From an uncultured Candidatus Saccharibacteria bacterium (GTDB taxonomy: Bacteria > Patescibacteriota > Saccharimonadia > CAILAD01 > BJGX01): a DNA stretch of 64,000 nt. The stretch spans positions 7,647 to 71,646 of the forward strand of contig CAZEIU010000001.1 in NCBI GenBank assembly GCA_964512085.1, in the 5' to 3' direction. Shown piece by piece: positions 6,286-28,847 of this stretch. The notes under the pieces were generated by a model. The model worked only from the letters and a program-made list of their open reading frames with translations. It was not told the origin of the DNA and ran no database searches. The position numbers and the translations under genes are program-made. Positions within the stretch are counted from its first letter, which is position 1, and every line of letters starts with the position of its first letter.

Positions 6286-8031
6286 ATGAAAAATATTTTT
6301 AAAATGTTTCGCTTTATACCTGGCGAAAAACTGCGTATTTTTAGCATAATTATTTTTAGTATTATCGGCGGATTAGTAAACACCGTAATACCTATACTGT
6401 TTAAAAACCTTATTAATCAAATTTCGCAAGCTACTTTACGAAATAATTTTGAGGTCGTTTACAAAATACTATTACTTATAATTGCAATATTCTTAGCTGA
6501 ACAAGTCCTTTTATTATTCAAAGAAAAGGTATCAGATACCTTTAGAATGCATGTAATGACAAAGTTAAGACTGGCTGTGTATCCTAAGATATTATCATTA
6601 GATATAGCTTACACCGAGAAACATCAGCCTGGATCAATCTTGCAAAAAATAAATCAAGGAATTGGCGATTTTGTAAATTGGATATTTAATTTGAGCGAAT
6701 GGATAGGAACACTTATTACATCGACTATTTTTATCTTAATTGTTTTATGGTACCAAAACATATGGCTTGGGCTTATATACACCTTCACTGTCGTAGTTAT
6801 GATATACATTACCAAGAAAAAAACTATTAGCCAAAAGCCATATATGAAACGTGCCAACATATTGCAAGAAAAATTCTCGGGCAAGCTTAATCAAACACTT
6901 TCTCACCTCGAAACCATCAAAACCATGTCGGCTGAAAAAATAACTTCAGTACAATTTAAAAAAACCAACGAGCAATTAAAAAATGAAAGGCTAAAACAAT
7001 TTGCTGTGCAGCGTCGCTATAATTTTTTGAGAGATTTTATTGGCGCAATAGGTGTAGGATTAGGGCTGCTAGCGACGACATATCTTATTACCAAAAAATC
7101 ATTTAGCGCTGGCGATATATTCTTGGTAGCTCTCTACTCTAGGACCCTAATGAACTCTATTCAGCCATTAGGTTTCTTAGTACAACAAACATCTGAGGTT
7201 AATTTTACCTCATCAAGACTTATTGATTTTCTTGAGACAGCACCGATAGTTTCAGATCGTGTTGAATCCGAAAAACTAGAGAAGTTGGAGTCGTTAGTAT
7301 TTAAAAACGTTACTTACGATTATCCCGATGGCAAAAAAGGTGCAGTTAGATCGGTGAGTTTTGAAATTGATTCTAGTAAGACTGTTGCTCTAGTTGGACC
7401 TTCGGGCGTTGGCAAATCTACACTTACAAAACTTATCTTAAGATTTTATACTCCAACCAAAGGACACATTGAACTCAACGGAAATGAAATTGCAAATTAT
7501 CAACAGAATAGCATAAGAGAACGAATTGGTGTTGTTATGCAAGACGTAGCTTTATTTAATTCTACAATTTTAGAAAATCTACAAATAGCCAATGCCAAAG
7601 CCTCTAAAGAACAAATTATTAATGCAGCCAAACAAGCTAATGCCGATGAGTTTATTCGCGAGCTTCCCAAGGGCTACAAGACTTTAGTTGGTGAACGTGG
7701 CGTAAAGCTTAGCGGTGGCCAAAAACAACGTATCGCTATAGCTAGGGCCATACTTAAAGATCCAGATCTTATTATTCTCGATGAAGCTACAAGTGCTTTA
7801 GATAGCGAAAGTGAAAGATTAGTACAAGATGGCTTACAAAAACTTATGAAAAACCGTAGCGCACTAGTTATTGCGCACCGCTTAAGCACCGTAATGCACG
7901 CCGATGAAATATTAGTGCTCCAAAAAGGTACCATTGTAGAACGCGGAACTCACCAAGAACTTATTAAGTATGGTGGGCTTTATAAAAAGTTATTTGAGAT
8001 GCAATCGGCAAGTGGAAAGGTTAGATTATAA
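6286..8031 (+). CDS. ABC transporter, fused permease/ATP-binding (exporter, MsbA-like)
   Basis: Six-TM N-terminal half, then an NBD with Walker A (GPSGVGKST), signature LSGGQKQRIAIARA and Walker B (IILDEATSALD). A TTGTCA...TATAAT-like promoter sits in the divergent region 6143-6285. Confidence 0.9.
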   Translation: MKNIFKMFRFIPGEKLRIFSIIIFSIIGGLVNTVIPILFKNLINQISQATLRNNFEVVYKILLLIIAIFLAEQVLLLFKEKVSDTFRMHVMTKLRLAVYPKILSLDIAYTEKHQPGSILQKINQGIGDFVNWIFNLSEWIGTLITSTIFILIVLWYQNIWLGLIYTFTVVVMIYITKKKTISQKPYMKRANILQEKFSGKLNQTLSHLETIKTMSAEKITSVQFKKTNEQLKNERLKQFAVQRRYNFLRDFIGAIGVGLGLLATTYLITKKSFSAGDIFLVALYSRTLMNSIQPLGFLVQQTSEVNFTSSRLIDFLETAPIVSDRVESEKLEKLESLVFKNVTYDYPDGKKGAVRSVSFEIDSSKTVALVGPSGVGKSTLTKLILRFYTPTKGHIELNGNEIANYQQNSIRERIGVVMQDVALFNSTILENLQIANAKASKEQIINAAKQANADEFIRELPKGYKTLVGERGVKLSGGQKQRIAIARAILKDPDLIILDEATSALDSESERLVQDGLQKLMKNRSALVIAHRLSTVMHADEILVLQKGTIVERGTHQELIKYGGLYKKLFEMQSASGKVRL

Positions 8032-8499: not shown

Positions 8500-9585
8500 T
8501 CAAATTTTGATATCTAAAGGATATTTTGGGTCATAAACTCTTACCCTCTCAAAGTCGATAGGTATAAGACGAATAATTTTTACTGGTTCGCCGTTAGCAT
8601 CGTATTCAAACTCTATCATAAAGTCTTTGAGACGCCATGGTTTGTCTAAACCTACATTTCTTCGTACCTTATCAGCAATTCGCTGCATGTGTTCTTCGGC
8701 ATCTTGTTTTAAGGATTGTATTTTTGCCTCACTCAGACCTTGTTCTGATAATCTTTCAAATATTAATCTACCGCTCACACCGGGTAGTTTTTCCATTACT
8801 ATAAACCCAGGCAACCCAGAATTGGGAGTAAATATTCGCGCCAATGGTTTAGCTGATTGTATCCCCATACTACTTAGCAGTTTTAGGGCGGCATACTCAT
8901 CTAGTGGGCCGTTAGATTTACTGGGCACAATTGCTTTTACAATTACCTCTTTATTGCCCTCACTAGTTGGCAAAACCATTTCATACACTGCTTCTTGAGG
9001 ATAGGGGTCGGTAGGGTCAGCAATCTTAATCGCCGTTGCTTTTTTTTGTAAAGTCTGGCCGATGTTCTCGGATATAAAAACTTCTTCTATGTAATCAAGA
9101 CTTTTTGCATCAAGCCCAGGGTCGTGACGAATATGCAATGTTTCGCCGTTCTTAGTAACTGCTTCTTCGTCTTCTATACCCAATATATGCTCTTGGTATT
9201 GCAGTCTTTGTATCTCGCGCACAAAATAATGCCTATATAGTGCTTGTCTAATTAGTTGAAACTGAATTCGTTCTTTGGCAGAAGTACCAATGCTATATGG
9301 CTCGAGGGTAGGTTCGGCTTGGCCAGGCAGTTGTCTATAATACAAGCCAGCTGCAGTTTCGGTTGGTTTTACGTTGTACTCTATAGCATTGACTATTTCG
9401 TGTCTCTCGTCGTCATTACCTTCTAGGCCCGAAACTGTTCTATCACGCCGATTAGATGATAGTAACCTTATTTTACTATCCATTTCGGCAGTAGATATAC
9501 CTAAGATGCTCATAATATCTTGCGGAATTTGCGAAATCAATATAAGGCTTGCTGCACAAAGCCCAATTAGAGTAGTAATGTTCAT
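8500..9585 (-). CDS. hypothetical membrane-anchored protein
   Basis: 361 aa with an N-terminal signal/TM segment (MNITTLIGLCAASLILIS) and a large extracytoplasmic domain. No catalytic motif assigned with confidence. Confidence 0.45.
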   Translation of the reverse strand: MNITTLIGLCAASLILISQIPQDIMSILGISTAEMDSKIRLLSSNRRDRTVSGLEGNDDERHEIVNAIEYNVKPTETAAGLYYRQLPGQAEPTLEPYSIGTSAKERIQFQLIRQALYRHYFVREIQRLQYQEHILGIEDEEAVTKNGETLHIRHDPGLDAKSLDYIEEVFISENIGQTLQKKATAIKIADPTDPYPQEAVYEMVLPTSEGNKEVIVKAIVPSKSNGPLDEYAALKLLSSMGIQSAKPLARIFTPNSGLPGFIVMEKLPGVSGRLIFERLSEQGLSEAKIQSLKQDAEEHMQRIADKVRRNVGLDKPWRLKDFMIEFEYDANGEPVKIIRLIPIDFERVRVYDPKYPLDIKI

Positions 9586-11639
9586 TAAACCTCTATTACT
9601 ACAGGTAAGACAATAGGGTTTCGCTTAGTCACTTTGTAAAGCAAATTGCTAAGCTCATCGCGCATTCGTGCCTTTACTGCTGGTGAATTTGGTGGTGTTT
9701 TGGGGTTACGACGAGCAAAGATGTTTTTGACAATTGCTCTAGACTTATTCATAAGCTCTTCATTGTCTTTAACATATATAAAGCCTCTCGAGATAATGTC
9801 TGGGCTAGTTACCAACTTACCAGTTTTGCGATTCACGGTAGCAATTACCGTAAATATGCCATCGCTAGCCATCGCCAAACGATCTTTAAGCACAATCTCT
9901 TGTACATCGCCTATACCACTACCATCTATTAGCACCGAGCCAGTTTGTACGATTGGTCCTAGCTTGACCTCACCGTCTTTGGCCTCTAGTGTTTGACCGT
10001 TTTCGATTACAAACACATTCTCTGGCTTAACCACGCCGCTACGCTTGGCAATCTCGGAGTTGTGCACCATATGATGAACTTCACCGTGAATTGGTAAGTA
10101 GTATTTAGGTCGAACCAACTCTATCATTTCTTTAACTTCTTCATAGTAAGCATGCCCCGAGGTGTGCATAATACCTAAATCATCAAAATCTTTGGTGGCT
10201 TCTTGGTAAACATACGGCCCCCATCTAAAGATATCGTCTACCATACCCCATACCGATTTCTCATTACCAGGTATAATTGAGCTCGATAGCACTACTACAT
10301 CTGAAGGCTTGAGTTTTACATCTTTGTGTTCGCCCTGCCCCATCCGTACTAAGCCAGAGTTCTCTTCGCCTTGGTGTCCGGTAGTAAGTACGGCTACTTC
10401 ACCATCTTGATACTTACTAACATCGGCTGATTTTATCAAAACTCCAGGTGGAACTTTGACGTAGCCGAGCTTTACAGCTATCTCCATATTAGATATAAGA
10501 CTACGGCCAGCAAGAGCTAACTTACGTTTGGCTTTGTGGGCAGCATCAACAAACACCTGAATACGATCTACTTGTGAGGCAAAAGAACTAATGATTACTC
10601 TCTTATTGTAATTACGTACAAATATTTCGTCGAGAGTTTTAATAATTTCTTTCTCTGATGGACTATTGCCCACTTTTTCACAACTAGTGCTATCACACAT
10701 CAGCATTAACACACCTTCGTCGCCAAGCTCTTTGAGTCGAGTCTTGTTACTAGGCTTGCCCGAAAGTGGGTCGTCATCAAATCGCCAATCACCAGTATTT
10801 ACAATTGTGCCTACTGGAGTTTTTATAGCAATACTACATGCGTCTGGTATAGAGTGAGTAATTCGAATAAATTCTACCTGAAAAACTCCTAGCTGAATCT
10901 TTTCGCCAGAGTCTTGGTTGACGGTGCGAATTTCGGGCTTAAATGGTAGCTTGTATTCTTCTAGTTGTCGCTCTATAAATTTGGTAGTAAAGTTTGCAGC
11001 GTATATTGGTGCTGGTAGTTTAGGCAAAATAAAAGGTATGCCTCCTACATGATCCATGTGGGCGTGAGTTATAAGGTGAGCTCTAATTTTGTCTTTGCGT
11101 TCCTCTAAGTAGTGTGTGTCTGGAATAATATAGTCTATTCCGGGCATGTCTGGGCCAGGAAACATAAAGCCAAGGTCCATAACTATAATGTCGTTTTCGT
11201 ATTCTAACGCCATCATGTTTTTACCAATCTTATCTAGACCACCAAGCGGAATAATCTTGAGCTTACCGGCATCGGCTTTGCTCATACCTACTTTTTGCGG
11301 TTTTGGCTTAAAGCTGTTGCCGTTGCTGTTTTCATTAAAGCTTCCTTCAGAAAACACTGCTGGCCCTCGGTCGTAACGACGACGCATAGCGTGAGGGTTA
11401 CTGCCTCTGTGGCCACCACCCTGTCGATTCTTGTTATTAGCACCCTGTTTATTATTATTGTTGTAGCTTTTTTTATTGGGTTGCTGTTGATTGCTGTTAG
11501 GCTTTTGTTGCGACTGAGCACTTTTATTGGCGCTTTGATTAGTGTTTTGGTTGGCAGCTCGAGCTGGTTTGGCCTCTCTACCACTCAAGTCTTGAGCGGT
11601 TAGAGGGCGGCTATTTAATGATTTTTTGTTTGAATCCAT
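9585..11639 (-). CDS. rnj: ribonuclease J with ~130-aa N-terminal low-complexity (Q/N/K-rich) extension
   Basis: Metallo-beta-lactamase motif HAHMDHVGG, beta-CASP region and C-terminal domain characteristic of RNase J. The N-terminal NQ-rich tail is atypical. Confidence 0.85.
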   Translation of the reverse strand: MDSNKKSLNSRPLTAQDLSGREAKPARAANQNTNQSANKSAQSQQKPNSNQQQPNKKSYNNNNKQGANNKNRQGGGHRGSNPHAMRRRYDRGPAVFSEGSFNENSNGNSFKPKPQKVGMSKADAGKLKIIPLGGLDKIGKNMMALEYENDIIVMDLGFMFPGPDMPGIDYIIPDTHYLEERKDKIRAHLITHAHMDHVGGIPFILPKLPAPIYAANFTTKFIERQLEEYKLPFKPEIRTVNQDSGEKIQLGVFQVEFIRITHSIPDACSIAIKTPVGTIVNTGDWRFDDDPLSGKPSNKTRLKELGDEGVLMLMCDSTSCEKVGNSPSEKEIIKTLDEIFVRNYNKRVIISSFASQVDRIQVFVDAAHKAKRKLALAGRSLISNMEIAVKLGYVKVPPGVLIKSADVSKYQDGEVAVLTTGHQGEENSGLVRMGQGEHKDVKLKPSDVVVLSSSIIPGNEKSVWGMVDDIFRWGPYVYQEATKDFDDLGIMHTSGHAYYEEVKEMIELVRPKYYLPIHGEVHHMVHNSEIAKRSGVVKPENVFVIENGQTLEAKDGEVKLGPIVQTGSVLIDGSGIGDVQEIVLKDRLAMASDGIFTVIATVNRKTGKLVTSPDIISRGFIYVKDNEELMNKSRAIVKNIFARRNPKTPPNSPAVKARMRDELSNLLYKVTKRNPIVLPVVIEV

Positions 11640-11762: not shown

Positions 11763-12356
11763 TTATAGCTGTTTTAAGATAGTCGGGATCTTTGAGAAGT
11801 CTTCGAGCAATGTTTTGCGCATTCCCCCGTTATAGAGAGCTGCAGCCGGATGATAAAGTGGCAAAAAGACCAACTTAGATCTTTTATAAACTTTTCCGTG
11901 GGCTTCGCTTATCTTAAGTTCTGGCAAAAACACATTCATGCTGTGTCGGCCGAGAAAAACTATCAGTTTGGGCTGGATAATTTTGATTTGAGCCAAAAGG
12001 TACGGCAAGCACACCTCTATCTCTTTGGCATTGGGGTCTCGATTGTCGGGTGGTCTAAACTTAACGATATTCGTCACAAAAACGTCATCGCGACGCAATT
12101 CAATACTTTCAAGCATTTCGTCGAGAAACTTACCGCTAGCCCCTACAAATGGTCTACCCAGTTTGTCTTCTTGAGCACCTGGTGCTTCACCAATAAACAT
12201 CAATTGTGAATCTGGGTCTCCATCGCCCGGTACTGGGTTGAGACAACTTTTAGCGATTTCTAAACCGCAATCGCGAGAAATAATACTCTCTGCAATTTCG
12301 TCTAGTTTTTTCTGCTTTTCTTCTGTTGTCATATTCACCCCAGTGACGCCGACCAA
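11763..12356 (-). CDS. uracil-DNA glycosylase, family 4
   Basis: GEAPGAQEDKLGRPFVGASGKFLDEML motif block typical of family-4 UDG. 197 aa. Confidence 0.8.
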   Translation of the reverse strand: MVGVTGVNMTTEEKQKKLDEIAESIISRDCGLEIAKSCLNPVPGDGDPDSQLMFIGEAPGAQEDKLGRPFVGASGKFLDEMLESIELRRDDVFVTNIVKFRPPDNRDPNAKEIEVCLPYLLAQIKIIQPKLIVFLGRHSMNVFLPELKISEAHGKVYKRSKLVFLPLYHPAAALYNGGMRKTLLEDFSKIPTILKQL

Positions 12357-17253: not shown

Positions 17254-17391
17254 AAATTTATTATCAATGCAGTATTATACCAAAACAAAACGCTTATGTC
17301 AATACTATGTAGTACTTACCAAAACCTACAATAGTAATAAACTTTGGTAAATCCCCCACTGCCATTTAGGCAGTGAGAGAATATGTATTTG

Positions 17392-17464
17392 TGCCCCCGG
17401 TGGGATTCGAACCCACGATCTTCGGATTAAAAGTCCGCTGCCTTGCCTACTTGGCTACAGGGGC
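17392..17464 (-). tRNA. tRNA-Lys (anticodon UUU)
   Basis: Reverse complement folds as a cloverleaf: GCCCCTG acceptor stem, anticodon loop CTTTTAA (UUU), T-arm GTGGGTTCGAATCCCAC, discriminator A. CCA not encoded. Confidence 0.9.
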
Positions 17465-18027: not shown

Positions 18028-18531
18028 TTAGCTAGTCAAAATTTTTGCATCTTGCCAGGAAAGATCGTCCCAGCTAGCATCAAAGTTACCCACAAAGGTA
18101 GGCTTATGCCACTCCCAGACAACATCGAACTCGTCGTCTTTGGCAAGCGCCTTGAGTCTAGCAAATGCAAACTCAGTAGCTACATCAACATTATCTTTTG
18201 GAGTAAAATGAAAAATTCTTAAAACCTTATCTCGCGTATCGGGCTCGCAATGTGCAGAGAAATTTATTACTTCATCTACAATGCGCCCTTGGGTATCAAA
18301 ACGAATACTCATACTCCAACTTGAGTACCAGCCATCCCACGTAACCTCTACCCTCATAAACTCTGGGTAGTCATCAGGAATCCCTAGCGTCTCAAGGTAA
18401 TTGTCTATTGAGATATCTTCGGGTATGCCAACACTGTCTCGCAAGACTTCAATGAACTTTTCGAACATTTCATCTCCTCCGTTCAAGGTGCGATTCGGGA
18501 AATCTTCCCAACAAAAACTTTCGAATACCAT
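18028..18531 (-). CDS. hypothetical acidic, Trp-rich protein
   Basis: 167-aa ORF, W/D/E-rich, no TM segment and no motif recognised. Confidence 0.45.
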   Translation of the reverse strand: MVFESFCWEDFPNRTLNGGDEMFEKFIEVLRDSVGIPEDISIDNYLETLGIPDDYPEFMRVEVTWDGWYSSWSMSIRFDTQGRIVDEVINFSAHCEPDTRDKVLRIFHFTPKDNVDVATEFAFARLKALAKDDEFDVVWEWHKPTFVGNFDASWDDLSWQDAKILTS

Positions 18532-18597
18532 TTTTATTCAAACTTTTTTGTTGAGATCCTTAAGGACCTCAAATAATGAGGCCCCTAAGGGGTTTTG

Positions 18598-18940
18598 TGG
18601 AGCTGGGGGGAATCGAACCCCCGTCCAGCCTTACAGAAAAATTACATCGCTACGACCATTCCCAATATTTGAGTTCTCAGCTACTCCAGCCTGGGTGGCT
18701 TGCTGAATCGTCTTTCCGAATCGTCAACCCAACTTTCTGGGTAAGTCAGCGGTCTTTGCCAGCTGTCACCTCCACTTCTGTTGCCAGGCTGTGGTAGATG
18801 GCCCCGAATCTTCGCACTCAGTGCGATTTTCGAACAACTTTGGGTTTTAGGCCGCGGTTGTTGGGGTGCCCCGTTTTACGAGTCTGAGCAACTCGGGTCG
18901 CAATATAGCTTCTGCAAGGATGTCGATACCGATCAGCCCC
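18598..18940 (-). ncRNA. ssrA: tmRNA (transfer-messenger RNA)
   Basis: Minus-strand 5' end GGGGCUGAUCGG pairs with 3' end CAGCUCCA, giving a 7-bp acceptor stem with G3:U70. T-arm GGACGGGGGUUCGAUUCCCCC immediately precedes the 3' end. ~343 nt, CCA not encoded. Internal tag frame not confidently assigned. Confidence 0.85.
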
Positions 18941-18974
18941 AATAAGTATTTTTAATCAAAAATACTTATTGGGG
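18937..18974. repeat. perfect 17-bp inverted repeat (CCCCAATAAGTATTTTT-aatc-AAAAATACTTATTGGGG) overlapping the tmRNA 5' end
   Basis: Read directly; one arm supplies the GGGG that starts mature tmRNA. Candidate operator, processing hairpin or element boundary. Confidence 0.6.
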
Positions 18975-19067
18975 CTCACCATGCACGATTCTCTACACAA
19001 TATTTTAAGGGTACTTATCGGTTTTACCCAACCAAAAACTACTTTGCACAGAGTAGACTTTGGTCGG

Positions 19068-19091
19068 GGTCTGAACCAAACGGTTCAGACC
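19068..19091. repeat. perfect 10-bp GC-rich hairpin (GGTCTGAACC-aaac-GGTTCAGACC)
   Basis: Read directly; lies between the small acidic ORF and the tmRNA promoter region. Confidence 0.6.
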
Positions 19092-19103
19092 GGTTGCCAG
19101 CAC

Positions 19104-19295
19104 TTACAGGTAGCCAGCCGACACCTTGGGGTTCTCTGGGAGGGTATCGTGTGCTTCGGCACACGCATGTCCACTCTCGTGACCCCTCAAGAAGAACTCC
19201 ATGCAGATCTCGACCGGGCTCATGCCCTCAGCAGTCATCTCGAGGATCATCTGCTCGGCAAGGTCGAACATGAGTTCCATCTCGGGATCCTCCAT
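19104..19295 (-). CDS. small acidic hypothetical protein (63 aa) with strong SD, GC-rich codon usage
   Basis: AAGGAGAG 6 nt upstream of ATG; helical acidic sequence MEDPEMELMFDLAEQMILEM...; codon usage (CTC/GAG/GGC) unlike the host background. Confidence 0.3.
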   Translation of the reverse strand: MEDPEMELMFDLAEQMILEMTAEGMSPVEICMEFFLRGHESGHACAEAHDTLPENPKVSAGYL

Positions 19296-20235
19296 TGCAC
19301 TCTCCTTCTTCTCGTCGGAAAAATAAAGGTAGAAATAGAAAAAGAGCTAAGTTCACCTCAAGCAAGGGTGAGCCTAAACTATCGCGGTTGCGATAGACGA
19401 GTCGCTCCAAAGCTACTACTCTCGTTTTAAGTTGCTCAAGTAGTATCAGCTAGAAAACCCAGCTGTGCTTGAGTGAGCATGAGAAATGGTCGTAAGGAAC
19501 ATCTCGGGACTATCCCGACAGAAACTTTCGAACTAGTTAAATGTTCAAAAACTTTTGTTGAGACCCTCCGAGACCCCAACAAAGTTGGAGCCCCGAAGGG
19601 GTGATGAGACAACACCTAGCTGTACTGAGCTTTCGCTAGATGGTTGAGCCGTCTGGTTAGGCTCAGGCATTATGTCTCCTTGCCCGGATCAGGATTTGCT
19701 GATGCATCTCAGCCTGATCAACTCTACCCTCTCTTGCGCATGCATCATTATGCACTTCGGAGCAGGATAGAGATTTTTGGGCAGCTGCGCTCAATCCGTC
19801 GGCAGACGAAGAGCGACGAGCCGCCACGAGCTTGACACTCCCTTTCGCGAACGCTTGCGGTTTCACCCGCTCACGCACCGGGGAAGGAATGTCGTCATTA
19901 AGCCACTAGGGTCCCCGGATCCAATTGTTTTACTACCCACCTCTCTCGAGGTCACCCGTTTGCGGGTGTCGGAGTATACCTCCGCAGGCTGGATCATTAC
20001 TTACCTCCCTACTGTCTGCGAGCGCTTCTGCAGAACTTCATCCTCACCCGGCGAACCGTTTTAGATGAAGCCTCCCCTGTAACGCCGGGAAGCAGATTGT
20101 CGTGGCAGCGATTTTAGCTGTAAGGCTCCCCACCTCCCATCGGCCCGATCGTGTCGAGTAGCGACGAAGAAGCTCTTACAGCAAGGTTGAGATGAGGCAG
20201 CGGTCCCGCCATGACCCTCAACCTAATTTTTTGAA

Positions 20236-20295
20236 AGCATTTGGCTTTCAGGCTCAATACAATGTTTGGTGTACTAAGCTTGAAAGCCAAATGCT
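20236..20295. repeat. long hairpin: 15-bp perfect stem (AGCATTTGGCTTTCA / TGAAAGCCAAATGCT), extendable to ~19 bp, ~21-nt loop, preceded by a T-run
   Basis: Read directly in the AT-richer core of the GC-rich island. Confidence 0.6.
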
Positions 20296-20598
20296 ATTTT
20301 GTAGGTACTACTATTTGCAATAACCATTTGCTACTGCCAAAGTCCGTAATGACATTACCAATCTGTCCACAATAATTTTTTAATATATGACACTGGCGCA
20401 TTACAGACTGTGGCAATATAGCAAAGTACAGTTTTCGTTCTAAGTGGCAACATGGGTTGCCGAACTCATCAGTGCTGGCACTACCAGCAGAACTGCCCCC
20501 TAGGGCAAAAACACTAGGGGTAGAGATCCTTCCAAGGGAAGGTTGAGCGTCATCTCTATGTGGCGCGCTGATTTTAGCTCGTGAGCTCGAGCAGTGGA

Positions 20599-20620
20599 AA
20601 TCTCTTGCGAGATTTTTTTA
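20599..20620 (+). terminator. rho-independent terminator-like hairpin (AATCTC-ttgc-GAGATT + T7)
   Basis: 6-bp stem followed by TTTTTTT on the plus strand; it closes a ~180-nt stretch (20440-20620) with at least three further short perfect hairpins. Confidence 0.4.
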
Positions 20621-20747
20621 AACAGGGCGCCACTATACCCTCGAGGTACAACACAGCTTTGTTGTGGGAGCTACCCCAGACCTTGTCTCACCGATTCTTT
20701 TTCTCTCGGTTTGACTTCTGTTGCCAGGGAGGTCAATCCCCCTCAAG

Positions 20748-20966
20748 TCACTGAGTGACTAGCTGTGGCGACCGGCGTGGGGGCACAGGCTCAACGTGGT
20801 TGTAGTCAACCTCGTCGTCTGCGAAGGACCCAAACGGGTACCCTCGCCCACAACTCGGGCAGATCCTCTGCCGAGTCGCGTCCCAGCCGGTGTACTTCAG
20901 CACCGTGTCATCTACGACACAGCGCTTCAGTTCCACCTTCTTCTTTCTCTTGGTAGGCATACACAA
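20748..20966 (-). CDS. small zinc-ribbon-like hypothetical protein (72 aa; may start at second ATG, 20960)
   Basis: MPTKRKKKVELKRCVVDD...ICPSCGRGYPFGSF...; a C-x2-C pair with a basic N-terminus; strongly GC-biased codons (CTG, GTG, GAC) foreign to this genome. Confidence 0.35.
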   Translation of the reverse strand: MCMPTKRKKKVELKRCVVDDTVLKYTGWDATRQRICPSCGRGYPFGSFADDEVDYNHVEPVPPRRSPQLVTQ

Positions 20967-21170
20967 ATCACTGTTTAAATGCTCTATGTGTGCCTACCAA
21001 TTTATTACAGGTAAAAGGTACTTTGGGTAGTATAGCAAAGAATATTATTTTTGTCAATACTTATTTACACTTTTTTTAGAGTTTGCAACTTCTTTCCTGT
21101 AGCTAATACTATATTTTGTGTTAATAACAAATATTTTTGTAAGGTTTATTAGTTTTTTTGTACGTAAAAA

Positions 21171-21188
21171 CCCGACATTAATGTCGGG
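21171..21188 (-). terminator. rho-independent terminator (CCCGACA-ttaa-TGTCGGG followed by T5 on the minus strand)
   Basis: 7-bp GC-rich stem; AAAAA on the plus strand at 21166-21170 gives a U-run in the minus sense. Terminates a minus-strand transcript coming from the GC-rich block 21240-21540. Confidence 0.5.
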
Positions 21189-21621
21189 TGATATGGTGTT
21201 GCCAGTAGTAATGGCGATATAGAGCCTTAATTACTATGGCAGAGATCGGTAATACTTACACTCCAGCTGTGTCGGTCGCGAAAGTGTCGCGCCTGCTAGA
21301 GGGAGACTTTTCTGCCGCACTGCTGTGTCTGCGTGATGAGTGACTGTGTGGCGGGTGGGTGGCCGAGAGTCTCAATCTCGACGCAATTTGGTAGGATCAA
21401 ATTCCTTCCATCCCTTTTCCTCTCCAGTGTTCAGCTGTTACCACTTGGGCCGCCCCAGGACCTTCCTGGGGCTCCTCGCTGCCCTCTCTTGAGGGCGAAG
21501 AAAGGATCGTCAGATCCCGTCCATGTATTACCCCCCCTTTAGAGAAGTGAGCGAGAACAGCTTTTACCAATATAACAGTTTAACTATTTTTTGTCAATAG
21601 TATTTGACAACAAAAAATATT

Positions 21622-22419
21622 TTACTTTTGATTCTTCCAGGCAAGTTCAAAAAGTTGTCGCAATACCCCCGCGATTTCCTTACTTTCAATAACAAGGCCT
21701 AATGCATCCTTGCCTCTATAAGTAGCAATTACAACAGCTCCTTTATAAAAGTTTAAGTCAGCCTTAATGGGTGTATCTATTTTTTTAGTTTCGCGTAAAA
21801 TTGATCTGTCGCTCTTAAGTTCGCCATTTAAATATGAATAAATTAGTTTACTAGCAATTTTCTTACGCATTCTATTTTTAGGGTTCTCAATCAATACATT
21901 TGGGTTAATTTTTAAAACTTCATCAACGTTAGTTAAAGAATATATTTCATCCCCTACCTTTGATTTACGCTTATAGTAGGAGCTAAGTACTTTAATTCCT
22001 TCTTCGCCTTTATAAAAACGCACAACTGGCGCATCGTCACCATCACTGGTAGCACGAGATACCTCTTTAAGACCTGGTAATAAGTTTTTGAGTTCATTTT
22101 TTTTGTTCATTACCTCAGTCGCCTGATTCTCTAAATATCTATCGATGGCTTCTGGTGGTTCGGCCACAAAAACGGTTTTTTTGCCTTGAGTGCTCTCGCT
22201 TACTAGCCCCATCTGAGCAAGTTCGTCGAGTATTACATAAGCTGTAGCTCGGTTTACATCGGCTTGCTCAGCGATTTTTTGTACGGCACTAGGGCCCAAA
22301 AATAATGCTGCCACGTAAACTTTGGCTTGCTTTTCGCTAAAGCCTACAGATTGGAGTTTGGCAGCTAGTTCAATTATTTGCATAAGGCTTATGCTATCAT
22401 AGTTTTGGGCTGTTGTCAA
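21622..22419 (-). CDS. TrmB-family transcriptional regulator (winged-helix HTH)
   Basis: N-terminal HTH region (MQIIELAAKLQSVGFSEKQAKVYVAALFLGPSAVQKIAEQADVNRATAYVILDELAQMGLV) typical of TrmB-like regulators, plus a C-terminal effector domain. Confidence 0.6.
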   Translation of the reverse strand: MTTAQNYDSISLMQIIELAAKLQSVGFSEKQAKVYVAALFLGPSAVQKIAEQADVNRATAYVILDELAQMGLVSESTQGKKTVFVAEPPEAIDRYLENQATEVMNKKNELKNLLPGLKEVSRATSDGDDAPVVRFYKGEEGIKVLSSYYKRKSKVGDEIYSLTNVDEVLKINPNVLIENPKNRMRKKIASKLIYSYLNGELKSDRSILRETKKIDTPIKADLNFYKGAVVIATYRGKDALGLVIESKEIAGVLRQLFELAWKNQK

Positions 22420-22492
22420 TATTTGTCAACAAAAGTTAATAGTAATAATGCTCAAAATATCGGCATTTTGCTTATGATATAATAAAATTGTT

Positions 22493-27294: not shown

Positions 27295-27645
27295 GTGAAG
27301 TTGAAAATCGCACTTGTGGTAGATGATGAGAGAATATTGAATGTACCAGATGTAGACGAAGTAGTGCATGTTCAGTCGTCATCTGAAGCTATTGCCTATC
27401 TTCAGTCTCACCCAGTAATTCATCAGTTGTGGCTAGATCACGATCTAGGTCCAGATGATGTCATTATGAGACTGGTTGATCATATCGCCGAAGAAGCTTT
27501 CTTTGGCCGAGGCTACGATATTGACGAAATCGTAGTTCATACCATGAACCCTGTTGGTTCGGATAACATTATCCGCACACTTGAACGTTACTACCCTATT
27601 CGCAGAGCCTCGGTTCTACCCTATATTGAGAGTATTCACTCCTAA
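27295..27645 (+). CDS. standalone receiver (REC/CheY-fold)-like domain protein
   Basis: 116 aa. KIALVVDDE at the beta1 end, LWLDHDLG at the expected phospho-acceptor position, VVHTMNP at the beta4 Thr position; the conserved Lys near beta5 is not evident. No output domain. Confidence 0.45.
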   Translation: MKLKIALVVDDERILNVPDVDEVVHVQSSSEAIAYLQSHPVIHQLWLDHDLGPDDVIMRLVDHIAEEAFFGRGYDIDEIVVHTMNPVGSDNIIRTLERYYPIRRASVLPYIESIHS

Positions 27646-28004: not shown

Positions 28005-28177
28005 TACAATTATTAGATACTACTACCAAGCCACCGGGGTCACTGTTAATCTCGCCAGATTATCACACCCCTTGGCTTTGGCCTCTCTTTCATTTATTAC
28101 TCTACAAATTGAGTTTGTACTGATGAGCTTCTGCTAATAAATATCGCAAAGCGAAAGTAATAAATAGTCAATAATTA

Positions 28178-28244: not shown

Positions 28245-28847
28245 GTGCAAAAGCAACTTGTAAAAGTTGGGGCAGTACACGTACGATTCTTGGTAACTAC
28301 ACTACCGGCGCTTGCCAGTAATATTGAAGTCGGACATGAAACTGTTTATGACCTGACACGAAAGCTGAATAGCGCAACTGGCGTAAGTGTAATTGACTCT
28401 GACGATTCACGATCGGTCAACTGCACCAATCTGCTATCCCAGATAGAAAACGCTGGTTTTGTGCTAGTATCTGTAAGCATTCAAAAGCAGCTTTCGAACA
28501 GTAAGTTCTCTAAGGTCAAGTACGTTGTTAACTTCCACTTCGTTCCAATGGATGTTGCTATAGCACACGCACCGAACTTTAGTGAGCATAAAATTGCTAG
28601 GTCGCTTTTTAGTGAGTTTATTTCGATGAACTATTGGCATCTGATGGCCTTCGAGAACCCTGGCGAAGAAAAGCCCTGGCTTTCTATCGCCTGCAATAAC
28701 CGAGTGCAGAGGTATAAGGCTGATGACATGAGTAGACCGATTATGAAATACGATCGTGACTCTGACGGTGAAAAGGCAGGAGAGCCCTATCCCCTCCCAG
28801 CAGACTCGGTAATTACGTTCGATGGAGCATCTGTTACTCTAAATTAA
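28245..28847 (+). CDS. hypothetical protein (200 aa, GTG start)
   Basis: AAAGGAGAC RBS, own promoter and terminator; no motif recognised. Confidence 0.5.
   Translation: MQKQLVKVGAVHVRFLVTTLPALASNIEVGHETVYDLTRKLNSATGVSVIDSDDSRSVNCTNLLSQIENAGFVLVSVSIQKQLSNSKFSKVKYVVNFHFVPMDVAIAHAPNFSEHKIARSLFSEFISMNYWHLMAFENPGEEKPWLSIACNNRVQRYKADDMSRPIMKYDRDSDGEKAGEPYPLPADSVITFDGASVTLN

Follow-up and report, generated by a model that had tools for sequence, protein, structure and literature searches.

The stretch at positions 18941–21620 of the 64,000-nucleotide (nt) sequence analyzed here (the window), from an uncultured Candidatus Saccharibacteria bacterium, lies between the tmRNA gene and a gene for a TrmB-like regulator. 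It is read here, with a probability of about 0.7, as a vertically inherited cluster of RNA genes on the minus strand, specific to the Saccharibacteria and genetically linked to the TrmB-like gene. It appears to specify two structured RNAs, one of ~400 nt next to the TrmB-like gene (RNA A) and one of ~940 nt that begins with a predicted hammerhead ribozyme (the large RNA), along with two small proteins, p72 and p63 (Table 1). A preliminary description of this DNA had left the choice between a decayed horizontally acquired element and a locus of one or more large structured RNAs, giving the minus-strand block at 21240–21540 as an example of the latter. That block does prove to be part of a promoter-to-terminator unit with a covarying fold (RNA A), and the RNA reading is supported and extended by the second RNA, with its hammerhead, at 20489–19547.

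Fifty related loci (L numbers below) were collected by way of the TrmB-like protein, and sub-segments of the window were searched with nhmmer and blastn. Folded as a whole, the large RNA has a minimum free energy (MFE) of -396 kcal/mol, compared with -313 ± 6 for shuffled sequences (z = -13). In a nine-genome alignment of its 5' domain (A3), 95.5% of the cells are paired and compensatory changes are found in 26 of 46 base pairs (bp), a number reached in none of 500 shuffles; slid controls gave at most 8. The covariation score of 0.423 compares with 0.200 in shuffles and with 0.107 or less in slid controls. The core of the 3' domain is made up of a CCGGGGA/UCCCCGG stem, a pseudoknot, a GUGAAA hairpin, and the sequence AAGCUCG, with the pseudoknot formed by the loop strand of the stem pairing with a strand downstream. 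Column pair counts failed for this core and for helix III of the hammerhead because of offsets in the MAFFT alignments, and an explicit duplex calculation was used instead. By this check the pseudoknot helix is 8–10 bp long in six genomes and occurs in five different sequences: GACAUUCCU/GGGAGUGUC in the window and L043, GUGAU-CCU/GGGAUCAC in L001, GAUUCUCUU/GGGAGAAUC in L006, CGGGUUCGG/CCGAACUCG in L002, and GACGUUGUCC/GGACGACGUC in L054. Homologues of its 3' domain were found in L043 (5e-40), L001 (3e-15), and L054 (2.9e-14), and a 25-mer from its trailer, GTTGGGGTCTCGGAGGGTCTCAACA, is identical in L001.

Neither RNA matches an Rfam 15 family, a check with covariance models that the preliminary description had proposed. 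All 4227 families were run with cmscan against 18400–22000 at E ≤ 10 and against L001, L002, L006, and L043 at E ≤ 1. In 18400–22000 the only matches are to tmRNA, to hammerhead, and, by chance, to microRNAs and snoRNAs; over the window and 26 loci, at gathering and E-value thresholds, there are only tmRNA, tRNAs, and sub-threshold hammerheads. RNA A likewise has no family in the window at E ≤ 10 and none at E ≤ 1 in the four orthologous loci. No covariance-model match was obtained to GOLLD, ROOL, OLE, HEARO, raiA, RNase P, 6S, SRP, or group I and II introns, and signatures of RNase P, SRP, 6S, group II domain V, and cobalamin riboswitches were sought by eye and rejected. GOLLD (RF01998), ROOL (RF03087), and OLE (RF01071) are large ornate bacterial non-coding RNAs of unknown function (PMC12286853). 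Like them, the large RNA is 0.9–1 kb long and much more GC-rich and structured than its genome, with pseudoknotted conserved cores, variable peripheral helices, a patchy distribution, and tRNA-type neighbors. Unlike them, it begins with a hammerhead, lies in linkage with a TrmB-like gene, and, as far as sampled, is confined to the Saccharibacteria. It failed every covariance-model test and so belongs to none of these three families.

The hammerhead itself is, by its core and topology, a member of the known class RF00008, with predicted activity. Its sequence, GCAGUUC/UGCUGG-UAGUG-CCAGCA CUGAUGA GUUC...GAAC GAAA ACUGU (the slash marks the predicted cleavage site), contains C3 U4 G5 A6 N7 G8 A9, G12 A13 A14, the A15.1-U16.1 pair, and an H17 at the cleavage site, and helices I, II, and III are of 7, 4, and 6 bp, with helix III open (type III). 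It thus resembles RF00008 type III ribozymes in its full core (CUGAUGA...GAAA, A15.1-U16.1, C17), its three helices with helix III open, and the compactness of helices I and II. Among eight orthologues, compensatory changes affect six of seven pairs in helix I and two of four in helix II; the helix III columns were inconsistent in MAFFT (offsets of 1–2 columns) and were not counted. Against RF00008 the window copy, which has a 21-nt insertion in stem II, scores 27.7 bits (E 0.0057 in 3.6 kb), under the gathering score of 48.5, and syntenic copies in L006, L001, L043, and L002 score 30–42 bits (E 7.5e-6 to 0.022). A strict descriptor comprising the core and three helices found 23 hammerheads in 455 kb, compared with none in 20 shuffles.

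In L037, the conserved promoter directly abuts the 5' domain of the large RNA and there is neither a hammerhead nor an ORF (open reading frame) between them; the need for a ribozyme would thus seem to arise only when there is transcription upstream of it. Further hammerheads are found directly before ORFs in L019/L020 and at 12522 in L006, the latter before an AAA_33 kinase gene, and in L002 and L003 a tRNA-like element or a tRNA lies upstream of the ribozyme. It appears that hammerheads serve these bacteria generally to punctuate transcripts of several parts, and RNase P sites are probably used in the same way. Bacterial hammerheads are often located near integrases in prophages, where they flank gene cassettes (PMC3088659), and have been proposed to cut polycistronic transcripts there (Perreault et al., 2011, PMC3088659). 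The window copy is similar in lying between parts of a transcription unit, so that cleavage would split a longer transcript. It differs in being part of a conserved chromosomal locus of Saccharibacteria, not near integrases, and in that it would mark a boundary between mRNA and non-coding RNA and stay on as the 5' end of the ~940-nt RNA.

A second complete type III hammerhead is found elsewhere in the window, at 28092–28165 (+). It belongs to a different, AT-rich sub-family (AUUUAUUACUC/UACAAAUUGAGUUUGUA CUGAUGA GCUU..AAGC GAAAGUAAUAAAU, with helices I, II, and III of 7, 4, and 10 bp and predicted cleavage between 28100 and 28101) and sits between a cREC_REC gene (27295–27645; PF20274, 4e-16) and a 200-amino-acid (aa) ORF (28245–28847). 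It is kept at the syntenic place in L036, L037, L042, L043, and L053, in L042 and L053 just upstream of an ABC-F-like gene, and there is a similar copy in L007. The pairing of a ribozyme that would make 2',3'-cyclic-phosphate ends with a neighboring gene for a “cyclic-phosphate processing receiver” is suggestive. L002 also has two hammerheads. That these might excise a circular RNA was considered and rejected because their helix III strands are not interchangeable, so that a ligated circle would not rebuild the hammerhead; more probably, the second one is part of the next cassette.

RNA A would have its own promoter and terminator. The promoter is overlapped by an inverted repeat, TTGTCAA...TTGACAA, and in most of the relatives examined a promoter like it stands immediately after the TrmB stop codon. 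The 5' domain of the RNA is closed by AGCUGUU/AACAGCU and CUCGC/GCGAG helices, which covary across nine genomes. The MFE of RNA A is lower than that of shuffles (z = -4.7), and in the nine-genome alignment (A6) 87.9% of cells are paired, with compensatory changes in 16 of 28 pairs (reached by 0 of 500 shuffles; slid controls, 4–8) and a covariation score of 0.368, against 0.234 for shuffles and at most 0.171 for slid controls. The 3' half of RNA A in L001, L004, L006, L007, L008, and L037 contains an H-type pseudoknot motif, GAAGG-S1-loop-S1'-CGAAG...S2', in which both helices covary by eye; no clear copy was found in the RNA A of the window.

RNA A also includes two mini-ORFs, each behind a purine-rich run that resembles a ribosome-binding site. 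The stop codon of the first is placed in a hairpin loop, and the peptide is MDGI in six genomes (the window, L001, L037, L038, L040, and L042) and MEGI in L004. Its codons vary synonymously (GAC/GAU, GGG/GGA, AUC/AUU/AUA), and all three stop codons are used; this variation points to selection acting on the peptide itself or, at the least, on its frame. Over 21 orthologous regions there are 30 ORFs of 2–6 codons preceded by a Shine-Dalgarno (SD) sequence, compared with 3.4 ± 1.7 (maximum 8) in 200 shuffles, and the orthologous peptides include MSGI, MGSI, MGGI, and MGGGY. We infer that the mini-ORFs may be translated. In the lambda bar minigenes, the 23S rRNA pentapeptide minigene, and the leader peptides of attenuators, an SD sequence is followed by an ORF of 2–5 codons in structured RNA. 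The mini-ORFs of RNA A resemble these in being short, preceded by an SD sequence, and set in structured RNA, with a peptide conserved through synonymous variation. They differ in that two of them lie in one ~400-nt RNA that stands alone, with its own terminator and without any gene downstream for them to regulate, and we know of no minigene or leader-peptide system with the peptide pattern M-[D/E/G]-G-[I/x].

Table 1. Features of the 18941–21620 stretch and its flanks (window coordinates; processing sites, promoters, and terminators are predictions).
Feature	Position	Strand	Description
TrmB-family gene	21622–22383/22419	-	Pfam PF01978, 7e-14
RNA A promoter	21569–21597	-	TTGACA-17-TATATT, extended -10 TG, 11/12 hexamer matches
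RNA A	21165–21562	-	Structured RNA of ~400 nt, own promoter to own terminator
Mini-ORF 1	21510–21524	-	AUG GAC GGG AUC UGA (MDGI, stop), 7 nt after a purine-rich SD-like run
Mini-ORF 2	21397–21411	-	AUG GAA GGA AUU UGA (MEGI, stop), preceded by GGAGAGGAAAAGGG
RNA A intrinsic terminator	21170–21189	-	ACCCGACAUUAAUGUCGGGU followed by UUUUU
Promoter of p72/hammerhead/large-RNA transcript	21029–21057	-	TTGACA-17-TATACT, extended -10
p72	20748–20960	-	Basic, Cys-rich protein of 70 aa, MPTKRKKK...C..D...CPSCGRGYP
p72 3' untranslated region (3'UTR) element	20680–20745	-	Conserved and structured; GGGGG-AUUGA-CCUCCCUGGCAACAGAAG, hairpin, CAAGG
Type III hammerhead	20428–20496	-	Predicted self-cleavage between C20490 and U20489
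Large RNA	19547–20489	-	~940 nt (945 nt from predicted cleavage site to terminator)
Large RNA, 5' domain	20131–20489	-	Hammerhead body; CAGUG...GCAGAUUG hairpin with AU-rich loop; hairpin 20236–20295; GGCGGGACYGCUGCC hairpin; CGAUCGGGCCGAUG
Large RNA, 3' domain	19547–20130	-	Conserved core at 19827–19918
Large RNA, two-hairpin terminator/trailer	19505–19600	-	Terminator stem 19583–19554 and U-run
p63	19104–19295	-	Acidic protein of 63 aa, GHESGHxCAE motif, C-terminus KVSAGYL; SD sequence AAGGAGAG
Perfect 10-bp hairpin	19068–19091	-	Directly 3' of the p63 stop codon; region conserved in L042 and L043
tmRNA leader hairpin	18935–18976	-	3' arm is the tmRNA 5' end; inverted repeat I2, 19-nt arms, 100% complementary
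tmRNA gene	18595–18940	-	Rfam RF00023, 109.7 bits, above gathering score; full model 1–374; tRNA-like domain ends
tmRNA trailer	18506–18593	-	~90 nt; paralogue of the large-RNA trailer at 19505–19600
tRNA-Lys	17391–17464	-	

The TrmB-like protein of the window has a 100% identical counterpart encoded on contigs of a metagenome-assembled genome (GCA_041906685.1), and its relatives come from Saccharibacteria/Patescibacteria genomes, in which the usual gene order is S20, (hypothetical), TrmB, the RNA block, (tmRNA, tRNAs), DHH, TruB, S15, and PNPase. The order of modules after TrmB is syntenic in L001–L004, L006, L007, L017, L037–L044, and L054, over TrmB identities of ~56–100%, and ordered homologous modules are found downstream of TrmB in at least 12 distinct related loci. 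Segment by segment, RNA A is matched in L004, L037–L040, and L042 (nhmmer); the p72 region in L038–L040; the hammerhead and 5' domain in L001, L007, L037–L039, and L042–L044; the 3' domain in L001, L043/L044, L006, and L054; and the p63 region in L002, L042, and L043. In L042 and L043 the block is present without an adjacent tmRNA, and in L054, a complete 916-kb genome with entirely different flanking genes, TrmB is followed by the hammerhead and the 3' core (E 2.9e-14). Because it persists in both situations, the block is seen to travel with TrmB and to be old, and its synteny with TrmB therefore rules out a recent insertion. The preliminary description had proposed comparing orthologous loci to see whether tmRNA and TrmB are directly adjacent in some. 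In the relatives the modules follow TrmB, and neither an empty-site junction nor a long ORF colinear with the RNA regions was seen.

These comparisons also bear on the other reading offered earlier, that the stretch is a decayed mobile element or prophage remnant at a tmRNA/tRNA hot spot, with small proteins, a phage-type hammerhead, and RNA structures as its cargo. This is considered unlikely. Like tmRNA/tRNA islands, the stretch adjoins tmRNA and tRNA-Lys genes, deviates strongly in composition, and carries small variable cargo. Integrative islands, however, insert at the 3' end of the tmRNA gene, and the stretch abuts its 5' end (18940), so that the location does not correspond to the integration hot spot it was taken for; persistence of the block without an adjacent tmRNA in L042 and L043 is a further difficulty, as is the retention of ordered modules behind TrmB over ~56–100% TrmB identity, across genera, and amid different flanking genes. 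The absence of any integrase or transposase, noted earlier, holds for every ORF between window positions 16 and 24.5 kb (Pfam), so that there is no integrase or remnant of one at either end, and no PHROGs or PADLOC families were found in the stretch, nor any match by blastn (distant mode) to phage and plasmid collections. A scan of viral contigs with the 3'-core pattern gave four matches, all in high-GC contigs without nhmmer similarity, which were dismissed as chance. Direct repeats 1007 bp apart do bracket p63 and tmRNA, but they are copies of a terminator/trailer, not of the tmRNA 3' end, and were rejected as att sites; there is thus no insertion at the 3' end of an RNA gene with a repeated 3' end at the far junction. 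Variable cassettes also favor a mobile origin (the small ORFs of L001 and L006, a 479-bp difference between L038 and L039, the missing large RNA of L045), although what they amount to is not presence or absence of the stretch as such, since L045 without the large RNA still has RNA A. Finally, the frequent proximity of bacterial hammerheads to prophage integrases (PMC3088659) might be taken as a sign of phage ancestry, but the second hammerhead family has an ordinary chromosomal context both in the window and in relatives.

In composition, the stretch is clearly set apart, as had been claimed by eye and proposed for checking by computation. Its GC content is 0.484, compared with a mean of 0.388 (standard deviation 0.019, maximum 0.432) for all other 2.68-kb segments of the window (z = 5.0), and its tetranucleotide distance from the rest of the window (strand-symmetric) has a z of 7.4. 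ORFs of 100 aa or more account for 17% of it, compared with 87% of the window, and 19431–21621 is the longest ORF-free run of the 64 kb; the remaining gaps are AT-rich. The high GC relative to the genome recurs at the orthologous loci of relatives, so what was taken for “foreign” codon usage in the small ORFs is more aptly called a high GC content, itself conserved at this locus. Hairpins listed earlier were confirmed, those at 19068–19091 and 19380–19397 as perfect and that at 20236–20295 with 26-nt arms. Terminator-like structures had been placed on both strands: a scan recovered the minus-strand one (21189–21170) and missed the plus-strand one at 20599–20620, which, read on the minus strand, is a hairpin within a 3'UTR.

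Pseudogenised or oddly decoded protein genes, with GC-richness and hairpins merely incidental, are a very improbable explanation for such a region. One long ORF does exist: 18969–19430 (+), of 153 aa, is the sole ORF of at least 100 aa in the stretch. It is, however, antisense to a conserved small gene and has no Pfam match. Public gene calls on contigs identical to the window (L034 7527–8555, equivalent to window ~18575–19600) likewise consist only of antisense ORFs, of 41, 149, and 73 aa, the last of these overlapping tmRNA; they run antisense to conserved elements, and p63, p72, both RNAs, and the hammerhead are all omitted. Substitutions in the RNA regions keep base pairs rather than frames (26 of 46 pairs, 16 of 28 pairs, and a pseudoknot in five sequences), and no relative examined has a long ORF colinear with them.

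Only two short ORFs, both on the minus strand, had been picked out earlier as genuine, and this is borne out by protein-level conservation and by the bias of substitutions among codon positions. The first, p72, more likely begins at the ATG at 20960 than at the start of the 20748–20966 ORF. By tblastn it is 49–50% identical over 44–45 aa to sequences in L038–L040, with C-x-V-D...CPxCGRxYPxGxFxDD kept, and its substitutions at the three codon positions number 27/23/35. Against Pfam Zn_ribbon_3 it reaches only E 0.079. Two proteins of a representative library, P0124 (1246 aa) and P0126 (740 aa), match its Cys-motif region 5–6 times each (E 7.5e-7 and 2.3e-4), and the fold of p72 may occur elsewhere as a repeat unit. 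The second, p63, shares 60% identity over its full length with sequences in L042 and L043 and 53%, over 36 aa, with one in L002; the GHESGHxCAE and KVSAGYL motifs are invariant among the window, L042, and L043, and substitutions are 21/12/27, with 14 synonymous codons. There are just two p63 entries in a database of 5.8 billion proteins, and a large-database search gave four matches for p72. Neither had anything significant in Pfam, PHROGs, PADLOC, or PDB sequence searches.

Whether the structured regions serve these two genes has to be considered as well. They could be long regulatory UTRs, with the hammerhead merely trimming an mRNA, and for the element behind p72 this is possible: it directly follows the stop codon and, at 80–83% identity to L038–L040, is more conserved than the ORF (by eye it is also present in L006 and L001). 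As an account of the stretch as a whole it is improbable. The promoter upstream of p72, among the best-conserved DNA of the locus (78–88% identity to L001, L006, L037, L038, and L042), appears to be shared by p72 and the large RNA, but in L037 it drives the 5' domain of the large RNA with no ORF upstream. A promoter scan found no consensus promoter for p63; the ~940-nt RNA has a terminator of its own before p63. In other relatives hammerheads do directly precede ORFs (L019/L020, L006 12522); at this locus the RNA is conserved while the ORF upstream of it is swapped among genera, and no protein gene belongs to RNA A, which has a promoter and a terminator to itself. L001 repeats the minus-strand promoter/terminator layout of the window.

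For the RNA-gene cluster, then, the following course of events would account for the layout. RNA A would be made from a sigma-70 consensus promoter, ending at its intrinsic terminator. From the second promoter, p72, its 3'UTR, the hammerhead, and the large RNA would be made as a single transcript, in which the hammerhead would self-cleave 5' of helix I, between C20490 and U20489. This would free a p72 mRNA with a 2',3'-cyclic-phosphate end behind the structured 3'UTR and a large RNA whose 5'-OH end would be capped by the folded body of the ribozyme, and the two could then have separate fates and stabilities. Since such cleavage would split the p72 mRNA from the large RNA, the hammerhead would act as punctuation between an mRNA and a non-coding RNA, and ribozyme “punctuation” of a co-transcript of this kind is the likeliest mechanism. 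The locus would be a natural example of it in a chromosomal, non-phage setting.

Several points weigh against this picture. The covariation alignments comprise 6–9 genomes, and the structures tested were derived from the same alignments, so that the agreement is inflated. The hammerhead falls under the Rfam gathering threshold in every genome (27.7–42.3 against 48.5 bits), and transcript ends, co-transcription, and self-cleavage are predicted from sequence. The large RNA is absent in L045/L046, though TrmB and RNA A are kept there; the 3' domain of L038 and L003 aligns poorly; and the small ORFs upstream of the hammerhead differ among genera (for example in L001 and L006). With such variable modules the locus is partly modular, and to that extent also resembles a cassette-like accessory element. 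Nor does this reading account for the high GC of the p63 and p72 genes.

There is about an even chance that the cluster contains one or two genuinely new RNA classes. In that reading, for which the odds stand equally level, 20489–19547 would found a new class of pseudoknotted RNAs of ~0.9–1 kb specific to Saccharibacteria/Patescibacteria, matured by a hammerhead in cis and coupled to a TrmB-like regulator, and RNA A would be a second class, for example a ribosome-engaging regulatory RNA, with mini-ORFs translated as part of its function. These would be the first lineage-specific large RNAs reported for these reduced-genome epibionts. It is rare to find a large structured RNA of unknown function, and with each new class (OLE, GOLLD, ROOL) new structural biology has opened up. 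With genomes of ~1 Mb, Saccharibacteria and other Patescibacteria leave very little of their DNA non-coding, and a conserved ~2.7-kb block of structured RNA is for that reason likely to matter to their biology. In a literature search of incomplete coverage, no paper was found that connects Saccharibacteria or Patescibacteria with hammerheads or with large non-coding RNAs. The locus also reveals conserved micro-proteins and mini-ORFs that had gone unannotated.

As to function, the most likely guess is that the large RNA and RNA A serve as abundant and stable RNAs that act in trans, or as RNA-protein scaffolds, with a link to translation or RNA metabolism. This is suggested by the neighbors (tmRNA, tRNAs, DHH/NrnA-like, TruB, S15, PNPase), the consensus promoters, and the mini-ORFs, which would bind ribosomes. 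Paired TTGTCAA/TTGACAA boxes at 21589–21612 and 22411–22434 overlap -35 regions, the first pair at the RNA A promoter and the second at that of the TrmB gene itself, and tandem or inverted versions are found in L037, L038, and L040. The boxes are candidate operators for the TrmB-like regulator. Given these paired boxes at promoters and the strict linkage to TrmB, it might be speculated that the TrmB-like protein regulates the RNAs through them.

The slot occupied by p63 in the window is a strain-variable cassette site in L038/L039. The two loci share an identical TrmB and differ by 479 bp in the interval from the large-RNA terminator to tmRNA (8853–9872), which holds a 116-aa ORF in one and a 147-aa ORF in the other. 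The promoter scan found no consensus promoter between the large-RNA terminator and tmRNA.

On the tmRNA side, ARAGORN made no tmRNA call at 18595–18940, where the central pseudoknot region aligns poorly to the Rfam model. The tmRNA and large-RNA trailers are paralogous (repeat families D2 and D7), each with two hairpins and UUCGAAAGUUU, at 75–90% identity and a spacing of 1007 bp; the long direct repeat 18506–18572/19513–19579 is thus downstream trailer sequence. Since it brackets p63 and tmRNA, it could mediate loss or gain of that segment; in L042 and L043, p63 is present and tmRNA is absent at the corresponding position. An exact 15-nt match, CCUGGCAACAGAAGU (minus strand), is shared by the tmRNA pseudoknot region (18774–18788) and the p72 3'UTR element (20714–20728). 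The motif CUGG(C/G)AACAGAAG recurs in L038–L040 and L006, and a related one, CUAGCAACAGAA, is found in L001. On the other side, the true start of the TrmB gene is an internal ATG of a 265-aa ORF.

In the relatives, the locus is a general RNA-gene cluster. L002 has, at 11846–11923, a 78-nt “tmRNA” that consists of the tRNA-like domain only (an acceptor stem with a G3:U70 pair and a T arm, with no mRNA part) and that scores 44.8 bits against RF00023 (E 1.6e-14), just below the gathering score. It lies directly after the p63 homologue and upstream of the hammerhead, and may be a processing signal or a mini-tmRNA. In L003 a tRNA-Gly(GCC) (6846–6914) lies upstream of the hammerhead, and in L038 tmRNA is followed by a tRNA array (Tyr, Lys, Gln, Glu) at 9776–10195.

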